64,000 bases of DNA, from positions 249,216-313,215 of the forward strand of contig JBAZKU010000001.1 in the NCBI GenBank assembly GCA_041650615.1. The letters are read 5' to 3'. The notes beneath the pieces were generated by a model. It made no database searches. It saw nothing but the letters and a program-made list of their open reading frames with translations, and was not told the DNA's origin. How positions within the stretch are numbered: the first letter of the stretch is position 1; every line of letters starts with the position of its first letter. A program made the position numbers and the translations under genes. This DNA is from Minisyncoccota bacterium. GTDB taxonomy: Bacteria; Patescibacteriota; Minisyncoccia; Phycocordibacterales; UBA9973. Below are positions 2,428 to 59,501 of the stretch, in pieces.

Positions 2428-3159
2428 ACCCCATAGGTCTTGCCTATGGGGTACACCTCTGCTATATTTATATTATGTCTATAAGAAAAGTAGATTTTTC
2501 AGTAAATGAGTATTATCATCTCTACAACCGTGGGAATAGTAAACAAATAATTTTCAAAGACGAACAAGATTATAATCACTTTATGAAGTTACTTTTTTTG
2601 TGCAATTCTCAGAAAAGTATTGTGTATAGAGATATTTCAAAAAATACTTTTGATTTTGATCGAGAAGAAACTTTAGTTCATATAGGCGCGTATTGTCTTA
2701 TGCCAAATCATTTTCACCTACTAGTTAAAGAAGAGGTGGAAAATGGGATAAGCAGATTTATGCAAAAACTCACAACCGCTTACGTAATGTATTACAATAA
2801 AAAATATAAAAGAACTGGTGCACTATTTGAAGGAAAATTTAAATCTCAACATATTAGTATTGACAGATATATGAAATATTTATTTTCATATATACATTTA
2901 AATCCTATAAAACTAATTGAATCTGGTTGGAAAGAAAAAGGAATAAAAAACACAGAAAATGCTCTCAGGTATTTAAAAGCCTATCAATACTCAAGTTATC
3001 TAGATTACTTAAAAGAAGATCGTATTAAAAGAAAAATTCTTAATAAAAAAGAATTTCCTAAATATTTTTCATCTAAAAATTCTTTTGAAAGAGAGATCTT
3101 AGATTGGCTAAAATATAAAAAACAATAAGCCTTACCCCATAGGCAAGACCTATGGGGCT
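2428..3159 (+). mobile_element. RAYT/IS200-like unit: transposase gene flanked by inverted REP-like hairpins (ccccatagg-tcttg-cctatgggg / ccccatagg-caaga-cctatgggg)
   Basis: Perfect 9-bp stems at 2430..2452 and 3135..3157. The right hairpin is the reverse complement of the left one. Confidence 0.5.
2475..3128 (+). CDS. IS200/IS605-family Y1 HUH transposase (RAYT-like)
   Basis: HuH motif in 'CLMPNHFHLLV', a Tyr-rich segment 'AYVMYYNKKYKRTGALFEGKF', and the N-terminal 'YHLYNRGN' typical of the Y1_Tnp / REP-associated tyrosine transposase fold. Flanked by inverted hairpins. Confidence 0.6.
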   Translation: MSIRKVDFSVNEYYHLYNRGNSKQIIFKDEQDYNHFMKLLFLCNSQKSIVYRDISKNTFDFDREETLVHIGAYCLMPNHFHLLVKEEVENGISRFMQKLTTAYVMYYNKKYKRTGALFEGKFKSQHISIDRYMKYLFSYIHLNPIKLIESGWKEKGIKNTENALRYLKAYQYSSYLDYLKEDRIKRKILNKKEFPKYFSSKNSFEREILDWLKYKKQ

Positions 3160-6687: not shown

Positions 6688-7620
6688 ATGAATAATAAAA
6701 TAAATTTTGTATTTTGGGGAACACCGGATGTAGCATCAGAAACTCTGGAAATTCTTAAAGAAAATGGCTTTATGCCATCGCTTATTATTACTTCGCCTGA
6801 TAAACCACAAGGGCGTAAAATGGTTATAACTCCCCCGCCGGTAAAAGTTTGGGCAATTGAAAATAAGATTTCATATTTACAACCGGAGATCCTATCCGGC
6901 AAGGATTCTACTTTTATCGGGTCGCTGTCTGTGCCTACTGGCACAGCGCTGCCTCTCGGCTCGTCAGCCTGCGAGACACCCGCTAAAAGTAAATCCTTGC
7001 CGGATTTGTTTTTGGTTGTCGCCTATGGGAAAATAATTCCGGAAGATATTTTGAATATACCCAAACTAGGTTCTATAAATATTCATTATTCATTACTGCC
7101 AAAGTATCGCGGAGCTTCACCTGTGGAATCGGCTATTTTAAACGGAGATACAGAAACAGGCATTTCTATTCAAAAAATGGAATATAAAATGGACACCGGT
7201 CCGATTATTGCCCAAGAAAAAGTAGAAATAGGGCCGGACGAAAAAGCGCCTGAACTGCGCAAACGCCTAATAAAAATCGGGGGAGAACTTTTAGTAAAAA
7301 CTTTGCCGGATTTTATAGATGGAAAAACTAAATTGATTCCGCAAAGCGAGAACGAAGCCACTTATTGCAAGAAAATAAAAAAGGAAGATGGGCTTGTTGA
7401 CTTGGAGGCCTTGCCTCCAAGTGAGCTATATAACAAATTTCGCGCTTATGCCACTTGGCCCAGAACTTTTTTCTTTAAACCTGCCCGCAATGCTTCGCAT
7501 AGCGATGCAGGCGGGAATGGAAAAAGAATAATAATTACCGATGCTAAATTAGAAAATGGAGAATTTAAAATTCTAAAAATCATTCCTGAAGGAGGAAAAG
7601 AGACAAAATACGAAGGATAA
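6688..7620 (+). CDS. fmt: methionyl-tRNA formyltransferase (carries a 36-aa in-frame insertion)
   Basis: FWGTPDVA..., VVAYGKIIP, NIHYSLLPKYRGASPV, C-terminal Fmt domain. Confidence 0.9.
   Translation: MNNKINFVFWGTPDVASETLEILKENGFMPSLIITSPDKPQGRKMVITPPPVKVWAIENKISYLQPEILSGKDSTFIGSLSVPTGTALPLGSSACETPAKSKSLPDLFLVVAYGKIIPEDILNIPKLGSINIHYSLLPKYRGASPVESAILNGDTETGISIQKMEYKMDTGPIIAQEKVEIGPDEKAPELRKRLIKIGGELLVKTLPDFIDGKTKLIPQSENEATYCKKIKKEDGLVDLEALPPSELYNKFRAYATWPRTFFFKPARNASHSDAGGNGKRIIITDAKLENGEFKILKIIPEGGKETKYEG
6896..7003 (+). repeat. 108-bp GC-rich palindromic element inserted in-frame in fmt (outer stem CCGGCAAGGATT/AATCCTTGCCGG); paralogous copy in tgt
   Basis: Core gggtcgctgtct...agcgctgcctctcg...gcgagacaccc is shared with 56921..57028; both copies are exactly 108 bp and encode FIGSLS...ALPL...CETP. 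Confidence 0.6.
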
Positions 7621-7628
7621 TCCTTCGT
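7610..7628. terminator. hairpin acgaaggat-a-atccttcgt between convergent fmt and hpf, overlapping the fmt stop; a second copy lies at 20489..20507
   Basis: Perfect 9-bp stem; U-rich on the minus strand side. Confidence 0.4.
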
Positions 7629-7633
7629 AAAAA

Positions 7634-20066: not shown

Positions 20067-20488
20067 CTTGTTGAGCAAACATTGATTTGTAAAATTTGCT
20101 TTTAACATAAATCAAATTCTTTATTTTTTTGTTCTTATCCTGGTATCTTCGCGTATTCTTGGCTCCCGGCAAGAATTTTGATTTATTCCCATACTTAATT
20201 ATATGGGTCTAACATTACCTGCTACCCTTAAATATGTCAAACGTGCATCTGTGAATAAAAAGTGGATAAAAAGAGGCTATAATTACAAGGGTAGAAAGCT
20301 CAGTAATGGACACTAAATAAGGGAACTACTTTATAAAAAAGTAATTATTTAGTGTCCATTGCCAAGCTTTCAAAAATCTTTTAGCAGTCTAGCACAAACT
20401 AGACACACTGTCAACAGTGTGTGCTAATAAAAAAACTAGAAAAACAACTTCCCTCTTTTGAAGTTGAAATGATACTTCATGAAAATTT

Positions 20489-20511
20489 ACGAAGGATTAT
20501 CCTTCGTTTTT
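20489..20511. terminator. hairpin acgaaggat-t-atccttcgt + TTTTT just downstream of the dinD-like stop; second copy of the 7610 hairpin
   Basis: Perfect 9-bp stem, T-run on the + strand. Confidence 0.45.
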
Positions 20512-26204: not shown

Positions 26205-28886
26205 TTACTTAAAAATCCTTTGAATTCTGCGGGCAAAGAATTTTCTAATTTCTTCAACAAATATAATAGATAATGCGATTGAAATAATGATAAGCCAATC
26301 AAACCGCCCTAATGAAACGGTGTGCAGTATTTTTTGCAGAACCGGCGTATATACTGCCAACAATTGCAAAACGATAACAATAAAGGTTGCCCCTAATAAA
26401 AATTTGTTTGAGAAGGGATTTGATTGAAAAATTGATTTTGAATCCGATCGGCAATTCCATGCATTAAACCATTGAAATACTGCGAGAGTTGTAAGGGAAA
26501 TGGTCCATGCTTTCTCTGTGTCTATATCAATATATTTCTGAAAGAGGAAAAGCGTGCCAATCATCATAGGGATAGCCATTAGAATCATTCTTTGCAACAT
26601 CAGTTTATCAATAAGGTATTTTTTAGGTCGCTCAAATTTGCCGGATAAAAGCCTGTCCTCTTTTGGTTCCATAGCAAGCGACACATCCAAAAAGCCATCT
26701 GTCACAAGATTGAGCCAAATAATCTGAGCAGCCAGTATCGGCAAGGGCATTCCAAAAAGCAAAGCTCCGATTATGGTGAATACTTCTCCGATGCTGGTTG
26801 AAAAAAGATATAGGATTACTTTCTTTATGGTTTTATATATGCTTCTTCCTTCTTCAACAGCAGAAACGATACTGCCAAAATTATCATCAAGAAGCACGAT
26901 ATCAGCCGCTTCTTTCGCCACTTCGGTGCCAATATTCCCCATCGCTACGCCGAGATCGGCAGCGACAAGAGATGGAGCATCGTTGACTCCATCTCCGGTC
27001 ATTGCGATAATCTCCCCGCGTTTTTTGAATGCATTAATAATTTTTAATTTGTGCTCGGGTGTTACTCTGGCAAAAACTGTGGTTTGGGATAATTTATCTG
27101 AAAGCTCATAATCGTTCATTGCATCAATTTCGCTTCCAGTGAGTATTTCATCTCCATTATGATAGATGTCGGCTTCGCGGGCAATAGCCATAGCAGTAAT
27201 CTTGTGGTCGCCGGTAATCATGATAACTTTTATACCTGCTTCTTGGGCTCGATCCATTGCCTCTTTAACTTCAAGACGCAAGACATCCTTCATAGCCAAA
27301 AAACCGATAAAAGTAAGATTAGAAATTGATTGCGGATTGGATAGGTCTTTAGTATTTTCATCAGTACCAACTGCAACAACCCGCTGTCCCAGCAAGGACA
27401 TTTTTATTAATATTTCTTCCAGTTTTTTTCTATCTTCTTCCAATATTAAACGCGTCCCTTCTGCGCTTATTATATTTTTTGAAAGTTTAATAATATTTTC
27501 TGGCGCGCCAATTACCGTCAATAGATTTTTATTTTCAATGGAGTTAATAACTGCATGATATTTGAGTTTATAGTCAAAAGGCATTTCTTGCAAAAGTGGC
27601 GATTCGGTAAGTAAATCTTCTTTATTAAATCCAATTTTTCTCGCAAAGACTATCATCGCCGCTTCGGTCGGATCGCCTGCAATATTCCATTTTTTTTCAT
27701 TATCAGAAGATATGATGAGACGAGCGTTGGCGCACAAAGCGGTAGCTTTAGCAATCATAAGCAATTCAGGGTGATTTACGGCATCAATAACATTATTTCC
27801 AAATGTTATATTCCCCGTAGGTTCATAACCCACACCGCCGACATCAAACAATTTATCCGCAACCCACACTTGCCGTACAACCAATTCATTTTTTGTAATA
27901 GTGCCGGTTTTATCCACAGCGATAACTCGCGCCTGGCCAAGCGCTTCTACTGCTTGAAGTTTTTTTACTAATGCATTGCGTTTGGACATCCGCCAAACTC
28001 CGGTTGCCAACACTAAAGTCATGACGATAGGCAATCCTTCAGGGATAATAGACACCGAAAGCGATACAACGATGGTAAACATCGTTCGTATTGATTCTCC
28101 GGTTGCAATACCGATCCCAAATAACACTGTGCAAATTATTCCCACTGCAATAATAATTGCCCGAGTTAAATATCTGATGTTTGCCTTCAGTGGAATTTCT
28201 GTATCAATAGAAGAGATTTCTTTAGCTATTTTGCCAATAGCCGTGAAAGACCCTGTTCCTACGACAACAGCCCTTCCGTTTCCGGAAACAATATGCGTGC
28301 CCTTGAACAGCATATTTTTTTGATCAGCGGTAGAAACTTCTTGTTTAAGCGCTTCTGCTGTTTTGTAAACGGGCTCTGATTCTCCGGTCAGCGATGCTTC
28401 ATCCGCCTTAAGATTTTGCGATAAAATGACTCGCGCATCCGCCGGGATTTTTTCTCCCTCCTCCAGATTTATAATATCCCCCGGCACTACTTCACGATCC
28501 GAAATAATGGATTCTGTACCGTTACGTAATACTGTTGCTTTTGTTTCAACAAACTTTTTCAGAGCATTAAGGGTATTCTGAGCTTTGCCTTCTTGGATTG
28601 TTCCAACAATTGCATTGAAAACAAGCACAGCGAAAATAATGCATGCATCTGTCGTTTCACCTATGAGATATGTAATAATACTGGCTCCAAGCAATACGAA
28701 AATAAGGGGACTATTGAATTGCCCAAGGAAAATTTGAAATAGAGAAATTTTTTTCTTTTCCGGTAAAGTATTTAATCCATATTGTTTAATTCGATTTTGG
28801 ACCTCATTAAAAGAAAGCCCATGCAATGATGTATTGAGTTTTTTAAATATTTGTTCCTGCGATAATAAATGCCATTCTGTCTCCAT
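26205..28886 (-). CDS. P-type cation-transporting ATPase (type IIA/IIB Ca2+/Mg2+-like)
   Basis: DKTGTIT, TGDHKITAMAIA, GDGVNDAPSL, ten TM segments. Confidence 0.85.
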   Translation of the reverse strand: METEWHLLSQEQIFKKLNTSLHGLSFNEVQNRIKQYGLNTLPEKKKISLFQIFLGQFNSPLIFVLLGASIITYLIGETTDACIIFAVLVFNAIVGTIQEGKAQNTLNALKKFVETKATVLRNGTESIISDREVVPGDIINLEEGEKIPADARVILSQNLKADEASLTGESEPVYKTAEALKQEVSTADQKNMLFKGTHIVSGNGRAVVVGTGSFTAIGKIAKEISSIDTEIPLKANIRYLTRAIIIAVGIICTVLFGIGIATGESIRTMFTIVVSLSVSIIPEGLPIVMTLVLATGVWRMSKRNALVKKLQAVEALGQARVIAVDKTGTITKNELVVRQVWVADKLFDVGGVGYEPTGNITFGNNVIDAVNHPELLMIAKATALCANARLIISSDNEKKWNIAGDPTEAAMIVFARKIGFNKEDLLTESPLLQEMPFDYKLKYHAVINSIENKNLLTVIGAPENIIKLSKNIISAEGTRLILEEDRKKLEEILIKMSLLGQRVVAVGTDENTKDLSNPQSISNLTFIGFLAMKDVLRLEVKEAMDRAQEAGIKVIMITGDHKITAMAIAREADIYHNGDEILTGSEIDAMNDYELSDKLSQTTVFARVTPEHKLKIINAFKKRGEIIAMTGDGVNDAPSLVAADLGVAMGNIGTEVAKEAADIVLLDDNFGSIVSAVEEGRSIYKTIKKVILYLFSTSIGEVFTIIGALLFGMPLPILAAQIIWLNLVTDGFLDVSLAMEPKEDRLLSGKFERPKKYLIDKLMLQRMILMAIPMMIGTLFLFQKYIDIDTEKAWTISLTTLAVFQWFNAWNCRSDSKSIFQSNPFSNKFLLGATFIVIVLQLLAVYTPVLQKILHTVSLGRFDWLIIISIALSIIFVEEIRKFFARRIQRIFK

Positions 28887-51338: not shown

Positions 51339-51538
51339 GGGCACTTATGTTGTTTACGATAAATGTGAATCTTACCTCACACTCACAAAACGAGTATAGC
51401 ATACCTCAAATAAAAAAGCAAGCCCCCACGCCCTTTTTTATGACGTGCCTTTGGCACATTGTATTCAATATCATAAAAATAGGTGTGGGGGCTTGCTTGT
51501 TATATTTACTTTTCTGGCCATTTGTTCTATACTCCAGG

Positions 51539-51844
51539 TTGGTCCTGTATTGGATAGTTGCGTCTCGCCTTGGCGGGATGAGGAAAGTCCGAACACATAG
51601 TTTCGACTCAGGTCGAGACAAACGTAGCGGGTAACACCCGTCAGGAGCAATCCTAGGGTTGAGAACAGTGACGAACCGATTAAGTTCGGGTGAAACGGCA
51701 AAATACCTACGCGTGTGCAAGATCGTGCTCCGACCTCGGTTGGAGAGAATCGCTTGAGCCTGAAAGTGATTGAAGGCCTAGATAAATAACTATCAATCTG
51801 ACTTCGGTCAGATTACAGAATTCGGCTTATAGATACAAGACCAA
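51539..51844 (+). ncRNA. rnpB: RNase P RNA (bacterial type, reduced)
   Basis: P1 pairing TTGGTCCTGTAT / ATACAAGACCAA; conserved regions GAGGAAAGTCCGAACAC, GGGTGAAACGG, ACAGAATTCGGCTTATAG. Confidence 0.7.
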
Positions 51845-51852
51845 GAATATGA

Positions 51853-56330: not shown

Positions 56331-57665
56331 TCAAAATTTGTAAAGGGTATCATGCGAAGCAAACTTAGTTAAAAATTCTTTCTTAAACTCAAAAAATTTA
56401 TCATCTAAAATTGACTGGCGAATATCATCCACCAGATGAGTGATAAAGTATAGATTATGAATTGAAGCAAGTGTTCCGGCTAACATTTCCTTGCCGTGAA
56501 AAAGATGCGCGATATAAGCTTTTGTGTAGTTCTTGCAAGAATAACATTCGCAATCCTTTTCAATTGGCGAAAAATCATTTCTGAATTTTGTATTCATAAT
56601 GCTTATTTTCCCGTTTTTGGTATAAATTGTTCCATTTCTGCCAAGTCGGGTCGGTAAAACACAATCAAAAAGATCCACTCCGTTTTCTATTCCCATAAAT
56701 AAATCTTCCGGTTCCCCTATGCCAAGCAGATGGCGAGGTTTTTCTTCCGGCAAAATTTCATTCACCCATTTCACGGCCGAAGACATATCTTCTTTGGCAA
56801 ACGAACCACCGATACCAAAGCCGTCAAAACTTCTTCCATTCACATTTATTTCCGAAATAATTTTAGCGGATTTTTTTCGTAAAGATTCCTCGCGTCCTCC
56901 TTGCACGATACCGAATAATGCCGGAGAAAAATCTCTTTTAGAGGGTGTCTCGCAGCGCGACGGCGCGAGAGGCAGCGCTCCGTCAGCAGACGGAGACAGC
57001 GACCCTATAAAAGAGGAATTTTCTCCGGCGCTAGAAAGCAGCAATTTCTGATGCTCCTTTAAACTCCTCTCCGCCCAGCGATGTGTGCGCTCCAGGGCTT
57101 CTTTCTGATATTTTAGGTCTTCGGTGGGACTGGTGCATTCATCAAAGGCAAAAATAATATCCGCGCCCAAATTGTGTTGGATTTGAATAGATTTCTCCGG
57201 AGTGATGTAATGAATGCTGCCATCTAAATGAGATTTGAAGGAAACTCCATCTTGTCCTATTTTTGCCAGTCTGGGAGCATCAGAATCATCAAATCGTTCC
57301 GGAATTAAAAGTGAAGGGTCAATTATTTTTGTAATTTTAGAAATGTCTTTTCCATAAGCAGCGCCCAAAGAAAAAACTTGAAAACCTCCGGAGTCTGTCA
57401 TCGTAGGTCCTGCCCAATTCATAAACTTACCGATACCTCCCGCGTCACGCACTATTTCATCTCCTGGTTGTAAATATAAATGATAAGTATTACCAAGTAC
57501 CACTTGCACGCCAATATCTTTTACTTGCTCTGGGTTTAAAGATTTTACCGTTGCTTTCGTCCCCACCGCCACAAAAGCCGGGGTTTTTATTTTTCCATGC
57601 GAAGTTGTTATTATTCCCACTCTTCCTAAACTATTTTTTAATTTTTTTTCAATTTTAAAATTCAT
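56331..57665 (-). CDS. tgt: queuine tRNA-ribosyltransferase (tRNA-guanine transglycosylase), with a 36-aa in-frame insertion
   Basis: GRVGIITTSHGKIKTPAF, VVLGNTYHL, DGFGIGGS, LLGIGEPEDL, Zn site CECYSC. Confidence 0.85.
   Translation of the reverse strand: MNFKIEKKLKNSLGRVGIITTSHGKIKTPAFVAVGTKATVKSLNPEQVKDIGVQVVLGNTYHLYLQPGDEIVRDAGGIGKFMNWAGPTMTDSGGFQVFSLGAAYGKDISKITKIIDPSLLIPERFDDSDAPRLAKIGQDGVSFKSHLDGSIHYITPEKSIQIQHNLGADIIFAFDECTSPTEDLKYQKEALERTHRWAERSLKEHQKLLLSSAGENSSFIGSLSPSADGALPLAPSRCETPSKRDFSPALFGIVQGGREESLRKKSAKIISEINVNGRSFDGFGIGGSFAKEDMSSAVKWVNEILPEEKPRHLLGIGEPEDLFMGIENGVDLFDCVLPTRLGRNGTIYTKNGKISIMNTKFRNDFSPIEKDCECYSCKNYTKAYIAHLFHGKEMLAGTLASIHNLYFITHLVDDIRQSILDDKFFEFKKEFLTKFASHDTLYKF
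56921..57028 (-). repeat. 108-bp GC-rich palindromic in-frame element in tgt (outer stem CCGGAGAAAAAT/ATTTTTCTCCGG), paralogue of 6896..7003
   Basis: Shared core on the coding strand: gggtcgctgtct...gagcgctgcctctcg...ctgcgagacaccc; encodes FIGSLSPSADGALPLAPSRCETPSK. Confidence 0.6.
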
Positions 57666-58474: not shown

Positions 58475-59501
58475 CTTGATTCCTAATTAAAATTTCACTA
58501 TAGGATGGAATATCATCTAAAATAACACCTGTTCCGCGAGCAACAGCGGTAAGTGGATCATCTACCACAAAAACTGGAATTTTGAGAGTATTTTGTAAAA
58601 GCTCTCCGAGCCCTCCCAATAAGGCTCCACCACCAGAGAGAGTAATACCTTTGTGCATTATGTCGGATAAAATTTCAGGAGGTGTTGTTTCCAATAAATC
58701 TTTTACCCCTTCTACAAGCCCTTTGATTGATAATGAAAACGCCTCACGAATGTCGGAATCTGTCACTACCACTTCACGAGGAAGACCTGTCAACAAATCA
58801 CGTCCGCGGACTTCTGTTTCCATATATTCCCCGGGAAGAACAGAGCCAATAACTATTTTTACCATTTCAGCCGTGGTTTCGCCGATTAAAATTTTAAATT
58901 CATCTCTCATATAGGTGATGATGTCATTATTAAATCTATCGCCAGCCACCTTCAAATTTTTTGATTTAACAATTCCACCCAAAGAAATAACTGCAATATC
59001 TGTCGTTCCCCCTCCAATGTCTATAATCATAGAACCGACAGGATCTTTGATAGGAAGTCTTACACCAATAGCTGCTGCCATAGGCTCTTCCACTAAAAGC
59101 ACTTCCCGCGCACCGGCTGAACGAGCAGCATCATAAACAGCGCGAGTCTCCACATTGGTCGTGCCAGACGGAACACCAATCAAAACTCTTGGTCTGGCAA
59201 GTTTTTTAGACATTTTATCCGCCTTGTTTATTAAATATGAAAGCATTTCCTCCGTAACTTCAAAATCCGAAATAACCCCGTCTACAAGCGGAAGAACAGC
59301 TTTGATGTGCCCCGGAGTTCGTCCAAGCATCTCTTTCGCTTTTTCACCCACTGCTAAAATTTGATTGGTTTTAATATTTACCGCTACTACTGAAGGTTCA
59401 TTTATGACAATGCCATGACCTTTCAAATATACCAAGGTAGTTGATGTACCTAAGTCTATACCGATGTCATTGGAAATTAATTTGTAAATTTTATCAAACA
59501 T
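58455..59501 (-). CDS. mreB: rod shape-determining protein MreB
   Basis: DLGTSTT, IGVPSGTTNVE, IDIGGGTTD actin-fold motifs. Confidence 0.9.
   Translation of the reverse strand: MFDKIYKLISNDIGIDLGTSTTLVYLKGHGIVINEPSVVAVNIKTNQILAVGEKAKEMLGRTPGHIKAVLPLVDGVISDFEVTEEMLSYLINKADKMSKKLARPRVLIGVPSGTTNVETRAVYDAARSAGAREVLLVEEPMAAAIGVRLPIKDPVGSMIIDIGGGTTDIAVISLGGIVKSKNLKVAGDRFNNDIITYMRDEFKILIGETTAEMVKIVIGSVLPGEYMETEVRGRDLLTGLPREVVVTDSDIREAFSLSIKGLVEGVKDLLETTPPEILSDIMHKGITLSGGGALLGGLGELLQNTLKIPVFVVDDPLTAVARGTGVILDDIPSYSEILIRNQDELPPR

Follow-up and report, generated by a model that had tools for sequence, protein, structure and literature searches.

An in-frame palindromic repeat in tgt of a Minisyncoccota bacterium, probably a copy of a dispersed element family of Patescibacteria

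Introduction

Rickettsia palindromic elements (RPEs) are stem-loop repeats of 100–150 bp that conserved genes of a reduced genome carry as in-frame fusions; the insertions, many of them ancient and shared by related species, are tolerated rather than useful (PMC10969869, PMC2229807, PMC1779305). Protein-coding palindromic repeats of this kind have so far been regarded as peculiar to Rickettsia and its relatives. RPE-1 to RPE-10 were reportedly described by Ogata et al. in 2000 and 2002, and related protein-coding palindromic repeats are said to occur in Wolbachia. Here we analyse a 108-nt palindromic element that lies in frame in tgt, the gene for queuine tRNA-ribosyltransferase, on a 64,000-nt stretch (the window) of the genome of a Minisyncoccota bacterium (contig JBAZKU010000001.1, positions 249,216 to 313,215), and that is probably a copy of an RPE-like repeat of Patescibacteria, also known as the Candidate Phyla Radiation (CPR).

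Two other kinds of small repeat bear on the comparison. Classical MITEs, short for miniature inverted-repeat transposable elements, are small and sometimes intragenic with open frames, and their transcripts form long stem-loops (PMC2229807). Palindromic amphipathic repeat coding elements (PARCELs) occur within genes as tandem repeats, from which surface proteins are built (PMC2996958).

The element in tgt and its copy in fmt

A sequence-only reading of this DNA had claimed that a GC-rich palindromic element lies in frame in tgt, directly before ALFGIVQGG, and the open reading frame (ORF; 57665 to 56331) reads exactly so, as ...SSAGENSSFIGSLSPSADGALPLAPSRCETPSKRDFSP ALFGIVQGG... (longer stretch around the insert, ...KEHQKLLLSSAGENSSFIGSLSPSADGALPLAPSRCETPSKRDFSPALFGIVQGG...). 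The in-frame reading of the copy is (A)GENSSFIGSLSPSADGALPLAPSRCETPSKRDFSP, and Tgt peptides spanning the insert would include DFSPALFGIVQGGR and others across GSLS...ALPL. The segment is an imperfect palindrome of 57–58% GC, compared with a window mean of 34.8%. Its single strand folds at −64.9 kcal/mol, against −43.2 ± 3.9 kcal/mol for shuffled sequences (z = −5.65; none of 200 shuffles equalled it), and its folding energy per nucleotide is the strongest among the GC-rich islands of the window. A covariance model built from both window copies scores it at 126.5 bits (E ~2e-25). The claimed gain of 36 residues needs a small correction: the 108-nt element is indeed in frame, but the net gain is about 34 residues, with 47 residues between the anchors compared with 13 in the ancestral empty allele, and the outermost few bases of the element may overlap earlier host codons.

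A second copy lies in fmt (Table 1), where its peptide is (S)GKDSTFIGSLSVPTGTALPLGSSACETPAKSKSLP. Both copies are 108 nt long, lie on the coding strand of their host with the first element base at codon position 2, and share one fold, in line with the earlier claim that the element is common to tgt and fmt. The longest inverted repeat of the window (115 nt) is formed by the tgt segment paired with 6896–7010 inside fmt. In the covariance models the sense strand reaches about 120 bits, against about 30 for the antisense strand, so that the palindrome is clearly polar. A chance origin of the match is excluded, because the core pattern described below is expected zero times in shuffles and because the 13 base pairs that differ between the tgt and fmt copies are all double, compensatory changes, none of them one-sided. 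No further copy, diverged copies included, rose above noise in the 64 kb with two covariance models run with filters off. GC-rich islands such as 26901–27008 and 59069–59173 were considered as copies and rejected as ordinary conserved coding sequence.

The fmt gene also carries an unrelated 36-nt GC-rich hairpin (CCTGCCCGCAATGCTTCGCATAGCGATGCAGGCGGG) in frame at 7480–7515 on the plus strand, with the peptide PARNASHSDAGG. This hairpin is absent from fmt of two orthologous loci, L033 and L093 (labels beginning with L or P are our own), and fmt of L033 has a different GC-rich insert elsewhere in the gene.

Table 1. Positions in the window of the two element copies, their host genes and the parts of the tgt copy.
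Feature	Position	Strand	Details
tgt copy of palindromic element	56921..57028	-	108 nt; covariance-model match, fold, frame translation
Host gene tgt (queuine tRNA-ribosyltransferase, 444 aa)	56331..57665	-	PF01702; TIGR00430; Z. mobilis TGT structures, E ~1e-92
5' arm of outer stem (element nt 1-27)	57002..57028	-	variable among copies; pairs with 3' arm
Hairpin A (element nt 29-57)	56972..57000	-	invariant irregular lower stem; variable 5-bp tip; conserved loop TGCT
Hairpin B (element nt 58-80)	56949..56971	-	invariant lower stem; variable 3-bp tip; conserved loop CGTC
3' arm of outer stem (element nt 83-108)	56921..56946	-	pairs with 5' arm
fmt copy of element	6896..7003	+	108 nt; 128 bits; phase and orientation relative to host as in tgt
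Host gene fmt (methionyl-tRNA formyltransferase, 310 aa)	6688..7620	+	directly downstream of def; orthologues L033, L093, L026, L086

Spread across Patescibacteria

The exact 21-base core, written as the pattern GCTGCCTCTCG-N8-12-CTGCGAGACA, was searched for in one genome per GTDB species. It occurs at no fewer than 118 loci, and all listed matches are in metagenome-assembled genomes (MAGs) of Patescibacteria, which among the matches listed are labelled Nomurabacteria, Kaiserbacteria, Paceibacterota, Parcubacteria, Minisyncoccia and 'Saccharibacteria' (third-party annotation, TPA, records). About 100 of the listed loci were confirmed by the covariance model, and several MAGs hold three or four loci each. 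The exact core pattern is absent from IMG/VR, and BLAST returned no match to the element in phages or plasmids. As these genomes were picked by the exact core pattern, conservation of the core within them is partly circular; the test on metagenome tgt loci, given below, is unbiased.

For CPR, Patescibacteria or Parcubacteria, the full-text literature searched, with subscription journals outside its coverage, gave no description of palindromic, in-frame or MITE elements, and the element is a copy of a large, apparently undescribed family of protein-coding palindromic repeats. From two host genes the sequence-only reading had argued for a mobile or copy-paste element rather than a gene-specific loop, and the loci counted here, at least 15 distinct sites in other genes among them, support this.

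Host genes, codon phase and orientation

Among the 122 listed pattern matches, 73 lie in ORFs of at least 150 aa, and they do so in a single phase, 40 in sense and 33 in antisense. The sense copies read ..GSLS-x5-ALPLGSSACETP-x-K.., and the antisense copies, in the mirror phase, read ..GVSQADGPRGSA-x5-DSDP..; this mirror phase is the exact product expected of in-place inversion of a 108-nt unit. A census of 87 copies with an ORF cutoff of 180 aa gave 30 sense and 21 antisense copies. About 60% of the listed copies are inside housekeeping genes, which by NCBIfam encode Tgt (16 copies), PcrA/UvrD (15, at about three sites), TsaD (13), IleS (4) and UvrB (two sites), with MnmA, the CCA-adding enzyme, RsmA, a squalene-cyclase-like protein, Fmt and Def as further hosts. 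The copies are solitary, with at most two well-separated ones per gene (L032, L115, L153). Two copies about 1 kb apart are found in one pcrA/uvrD gene in L032 (3944–4051 and 5006–5113) and in L115 (~850–960 and 1820–1930).

There are at least 15 distinct genic sites, and one phase is used at all of them. The unit length is a multiple of three, so the host frame would be kept in any phase. Four to six of the element's frames are usually stop-free, and a third frame is open in 71 of the 87 copies yet almost never used; stop codons therefore do not explain the single phase, and their avoidance was rejected as its cause. On the simplest reading, the single phase would reflect selection for two small, polar, Gly/Pro/Ser-rich peptides over Arg/Cys-rich alternatives.

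Approximately 15 of the 87 copies (~17%) are clearly intergenic and lie in short spacers between housekeeping genes, 7–30 nt from the ends of the neighbouring genes. Such copies could double as terminators or mRNA stabilisers. Intergenic copies that nearly fill their spacers, starting 7–30 nt past the upstream stop codon, are seen at L037:6667-6773, L043:1449-1555, L058:6781-6874 and L070:5606-5698.

Three-way-junction fold and covariation

The fold shared by both window copies is a three-way junction made up of an outer stem of about 23 bp, hairpin A and hairpin B (Table 1). The irregularities in the lower stem of hairpin A are a T·G pair, a bulged C and a T/T mismatch. In helices 1 and 2 of the outer stem all pairs except one covary, and 90–92% of cells are paired. 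Across 87 aligned copies, 95.1% of pair cells are Watson-Crick or wobble, compared with 70.8% after shuffling and 36–51% with a slid partner, the double-change cells number 821 against 239 in shuffles, and covariation is seen in 30 of 42 pairs. Fitting the alignment to the model favours the structure; even so, the differences are very large, and the relatedness of the sequences is retained in the slid controls.

Conservation is central and consists of the invariant blocks GTCGCTGTCT, AGCGCTGCCTCTCG and CTGCGAGACAC, both loops and the helix irregularities. Blocks 2 and 3 are partly fixed by the search pattern, whereas block 1, the loops and the irregularities are not. The termini are the least conserved columns, and the arms and hairpin tips vary freely, with 47 distinct hairpin-A tips among the 87 copies, nearly all of them perfectly paired. 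Hairpin tips shared between genes are suggestive of gene conversion, but the space of GC-rich 5-bp stems is small.

Constraint on nucleotides rather than on the peptide

Mean pairwise identity per codon position was calculated for 18 distinct unbiased tgt orthologues with a sense copy. The host gene tgt shows the usual coding signature, with identities of 0.85–0.89, 0.91–0.95 and 0.54–0.55 at codon positions 1, 2 and 3, respectively, and 0.87, 0.93 and 0.55 as means. Neither part of the element has such a periodicity: the values are 0.90, 0.92 and 0.91 for the asymmetric core of about 50 nt, and 0.67–0.70, 0.58–0.74 and 0.56 for the arms. The flat profile of the core places the constraint on the nucleotides, with the peptide unseen by selection. 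The same core nucleotides are kept whichever strand is translated, and also in intergenic copies, and from these comparisons they are either under purifying selection or continually homogenised.

The arms drift yet stay Watson-Crick paired, and because they are as diverged as synonymous sites, the insertion at the tgt site is old. About 1% of cells hold G-U pairs, which are matched or exceeded in number by A-C mismatches whichever strand is the mRNA. When G-U pairs and A-C mismatches were split by host orientation, no signature of mRNA-strand selection was found in any group, and the mRNA fold therefore shows no sign of being selected. A DNA-level or two-strand constraint would give strict Watson-Crick pairing, as would templated copying between the arms.

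History of the tgt site and inversion in place

The tgt site lies between ..ERSLxEHxKL and LFGIVQGG, and it was followed through 120 Tgt orthologues of 77–91% identity and 80 metagenome tgt loci, the latter found with an insert-less query and thus unbiased towards the element. Empty, ancestral-looking alleles have NxENK(I/V)(A/S) or GGDQA, with 11–13 residues between the anchors, and an insert-less allele among the close orthologues reads ..EHKKLNTENKIA followed by LFGIVQGG. The covariance model finds the sense element in 22 of the 80 metagenome loci, each time at exactly 108 nt. The inverted element occupies the site in L045, L060/L166, L089, P0028, P0047, P0067 and P0112; a core variant reads ..ALTLGSSACERP.., and L183 holds a degenerate derivative (53 bits). 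Ten or more other insert families occur at the same codon, nearly all of them long hairpins of −25 to −60 kcal/mol, and inserts are combined in tandem in P0047, P0052 and P0112. Some short alleles are visibly deletion scars of such inserts (for example P0110 compared with P0065, P0119 with P0114, P0120 with P0102 and P0086 with P0076). Because empty, scarred, inverted, replaced and tandem states are all met at one codon, the site is a hot spot of palindrome gain, loss, replacement and inversion.

The other inserts at the tgt site were seen in L121, L126, L140, L164, L125, L135, L186, L189, L152, L174, L122, L128, L179, L150 and further loci. Some of these families have copies elsewhere, for example at L189:4331-4438 and L094:7858-7943.

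Inversion in place is seen in two host genes. In fmt of L033 the window copy is about 95% identical, compared with about 80% for its flanks, and where the arms differ the changes compensate each other; in fmt of L093 the complete 108-nt unit, asymmetric bulge included, is inverted in place. L167 and L166 differ likewise by a whole-unit inversion at tgt. A second element copy in tgt is found at L153:1306-1409, in the zinc subdomain between CxCxxC and ..YIAHL.., in the same phase.

The sequence-only reading had named as evidence against itself a similar loop in the Tgt of every relative together with no copies elsewhere. Insert-free, scarred, inverted and unrelated-insert alleles exist instead, and the alleles lacking the 108 bp that it had proposed to look for were found in close orthologues. 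Since its arms have diverged as far as host synonymous sites, the tgt copy itself is old and vertically inherited, and thus evidence of past rather than current mobility.

Tgt protein context

In the structure alignment, residues 203–245 of the query replace 10 residues (183–192) of Zymomonas mobilis TGT. An AlphaFold2 model from 46 close homologues is of moderate quality (mean predicted local distance difference test, pLDDT, 65; predicted template modelling score, pTM, 0.74) and consists here of a long helix (184–213), a coil (214–244, pLDDT ~30) and the ALFGIVQGG strand (249–255). In TIM barrels the loops that lead from a helix into a strand sit at the strands' N-terminal end, opposite to the catalytic face. 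Because the insert is in a predicted helix-strand loop, this general topology would put it on the barrel face opposite the active site; the insert is thus just before the catalytic motif in sequence, as had been noted, but probably not in space. That an essential enzyme tolerates an in-frame insert, also part of the sequence-only reading, agrees with the predicted disorder of the coil and with the open host ORF.

Z. mobilis TGT lacks a counterpart of a segment of about 20–30 residues (AYGKDISKITKIIDPSLLIPERFDDSDAPR) at Tgt residues 103–132 (window ~57270–57359, minus strand). This segment is nearly invariant in relatives, is not GC-rich and is modelled with a pLDDT of about 30.

Other hairpins in the window

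A 31-nt inverted repeat with 87% complementarity forms a hairpin of about 89 nt at 51413–51501, just upstream of the RNase P RNA gene (51542–51845), which is only 304 nt long. The hairpin scores weakly with the element models (16 bits), probably merely through being a hairpin. Two short hairpins recur in the window and look like terminators, one of 25 nt with 100% complementarity (2429–2453 and 3133–3157) and one of 26 nt with 96% complementarity (7606–7631 and 20486–20511).

Origin and maintenance of the element

The segment in tgt is probably a copy of a dispersed, non-autonomous, translated RPE-like palindromic repeat of Patescibacteria (Nomurabacteria/Paceibacteria-type), tolerated in a disordered loop. 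A unit of about 108 nt, a multiple of three, was copied into many sites, and would have spread by copy-and-paste through a trans-acting activity. In gene-dense genomes the survivors in essential genes would be copies in tolerant loops and in a benign, stop-free phase. The tgt insertion took place in an ancestor of the clade, beside the ..GAAAAT AAA ATT GC.. codons before ALFGIVQGG, and was then inherited vertically, with some lineages later deleting, replacing or flipping the copy in place. The intact ORF suggests that the element is translated with the host protein as a disordered loop. Arm pairing may be kept by selection for the fold, by correction templated on the hairpin (template switching within a strand of a quasi-palindrome), or by the two together, and whole-element inversion may result from recombination or template switching between the arms. 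The weakest step, which we regard as doubtful, is that the asymmetric core would be the recognition site of a trans-acting factor on folded DNA; the likeliest candidate for the factor would be a transposase or recombinase that recognises hairpins or cruciforms and has its gene elsewhere in the genome.

Several observations weigh against this origin. Searches for a trans-acting gene, a target-site duplication and a conserved terminal repeat found none, and the 67 ORFs within 2.5 kb of intergenic copies include no transposase or recombinase, only housekeeping genes. In classical MITEs conservation is terminal, whereas here it is central. Recent transposition was not observed, the tgt arms being about as diverged as host synonymous sites, and an immobilised selfish relic should not retain a 50-nt core for so long, which suggests that some further function or drive is at work. 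The evidence for translation of the insert is the intact ORF, and core conservation in a sample chosen by the exact core pattern is partly circular. Tentatively, the core of about 50 nt may be a functional cis-site, read by a CPR factor as folded DNA or RNA on either strand and under purifying selection in essential genes in both orientations, and the same machinery might target or flip palindromes. Such a site would explain the ten or more palindrome families at one tgt codon as well as in-place inversion.

Part of the same evidence could be claimed for a signal that serves the host. In such an account, which we consider unlikely, the element or its core would be not just selfish DNA but a cis-acting signal, embedded in genes by chance and maintained by the host (a site for a nucleoid, repair or recombination protein, or an uptake-like motif under molecular drive) and spread by that function. 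Conservation of the core extends to every codon position, in contrast to the diverged arms and host synonymous sites, the core is kept in both orientations and in intergenic copies, the helix irregularities and loop sequences are invariant, and wobble pairs are almost absent, as a DNA-level or two-strand constraint predicts. However, the density of two copies per 64 kb is low, unlike that of uptake sequences or repetitive extragenic palindromic (REP) elements, many close relatives have lost or replaced the tgt copy with no evident substitute at that site, and no candidate binding protein was identified. A signal of this kind is in any case compatible with a mobile-repeat origin and not exclusive of it. 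Far less probable is a role at the RNA level, in which the element would be removed from the mRNA or act within it, for instance as a processing site, small intron or self-cleaving ribozyme; its peptide would never be made or would be irrelevant. The three-way junction, with its strong covariation and conserved junction and loop nucleotides, does resemble a functional RNA, and CPR genomes have intervening sequences in their rRNA genes. Both orientations are nevertheless found within orthologous genes, and the genic copies all keep the host frame open in one phase, which an excised RNA does not need. G-U pairs are as rare as given above, with A-C mismatches not fewer on either strand. Rfam 15 finds only tRNAs and RNase P in the window and nothing on the element at the gathering threshold or even at E ≤ 10, and known ribozymes, introns and small RNAs were rejected on this null result.

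The peptide fares no better as the object of selection. An adaptive, lineage-specific expansion of the Tgt loop, with the fmt likeness due to a shared useful module, could account for the retention of an open-frame insert in many orthologues and for the apparent conservation of the GSLS and ALPLGSSACETP motifs, but conservation without codon-position periodicity, an inverted copy that encodes an unrelated peptide at the same site, the same DNA in at least 10 unrelated enzymes and between genes, relatives that function with an empty site or wholly different inserts, and the predicted disorder of the segment make it highly improbable. Least credible of all is that the palindrome arose in situ, by template-switch mutation at an AT-rich slippery site, and is immobile, with the fmt copy convergent. 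Quasi-palindrome correction can create and perfect hairpins, many different palindromes occur at the tgt site in relatives, and the arms merge into host codons; however, independent origins cannot account for an identical asymmetric core of about 50 nt at no fewer than 15 unrelated sites and at least 118 loci. For this element family an in-situ origin is effectively refuted, although a contribution to arm extension or to some other insert families is possible.

As a translated mobile repeat, the element would bring such DNA to a second, unrelated radiation of reduced genomes, in core translation, tRNA-modification and DNA-repair enzymes, and it suggests that in genomes densely packed with genes, selfish hairpin DNA is driven into protein loops that can accommodate it. 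Repeat DNA rather than adaptation may explain many 'CPR-specific insertions' in conserved proteins, with consequences for annotation, homology modelling, marker-gene alignments and phylogenies, and the repeats may confuse MAG assembly. Core conservation, the single phase, in-place flips and the multi-family hot spot would be signs of a DNA-level mechanism in bacteria that cannot yet be grown alone. If the cis-site reading of the core were true, it would mean a new structure-directed insertion and inversion system that shapes core-enzyme loops across much of the CPR.

Comparison with known systems

Classical MITEs (Correia/NEMIS, ERIC/IRU, RUP, BOX) are, like the element, small, non-autonomous and hairpin-forming. 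They feature conserved terminal inverted repeats, often TA target duplications, and cognate insertion sequence (IS) transposases, whereas in the element conservation is lowest at the termini, no target duplication can be seen, and near the copies there was no IS partner. The flanks of the two window copies, GCG/CCGG..CCGG/CAT in tgt and TAT/CCGG..CCGG/ATT in fmt, are without a direct repeat, and the comparison of empty and filled tgt sites for a target duplication is blurred by age.

REP/BIME-RAYT, IS200/IS605 (HUH/Y1) and integron attC systems recognise the irregularities of imperfect hairpins on folded single-stranded DNA, and their stems covary. The conserved irregularities and covarying stems of the element resemble these systems, an analogy that may serve as a lead. 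Unlike the element, the sites of these systems are extragenic and shorter (REP ~35 bp) or have conserved stem-base boxes (attC), and no RAYT, TnpA or integrase gene was seen near the copies. It also differs from DNA uptake sequences, which are short motifs at about one per kb, in being a structured unit of 108 nt with two copies per 64 kb. PARCELs share with it palindromic DNA that codes for a peptide in either orientation in minimal-genome bacteria; the element, in contrast, is solitary, lies in enzymes and forms no tandem arrays.

RPEs are closest in behaviour: they too are dispersed stem-loops with intergenic copies and in-frame copies in housekeeping genes of a reduced genome, with no associated transposase. 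The likeness to RPE-1 to RPE-10 is one of behaviour, and the listed matches are all from Patescibacteria, a different phylum. What was found here is a dispersed stem-loop repeat of about 108 nt, fused in frame with the host ORF kept and also present between genes; for Tgt, the host that was modelled, placement in a surface loop is suggested by the moderate model (mean pLDDT 65), which has a coil of pLDDT ~30 from helix 184–213 to strand 249–255. Unlike RPEs, the Patescibacteria element forms a three-way junction in which the asymmetric centre is conserved and the arms covary freely. It is commonly met in both orientations at the same orthologous site, its genic copies all use a single codon phase, at least 10 palindrome families have entered one tgt codon, and the core appears to be under purifying selection at the nucleotide level.

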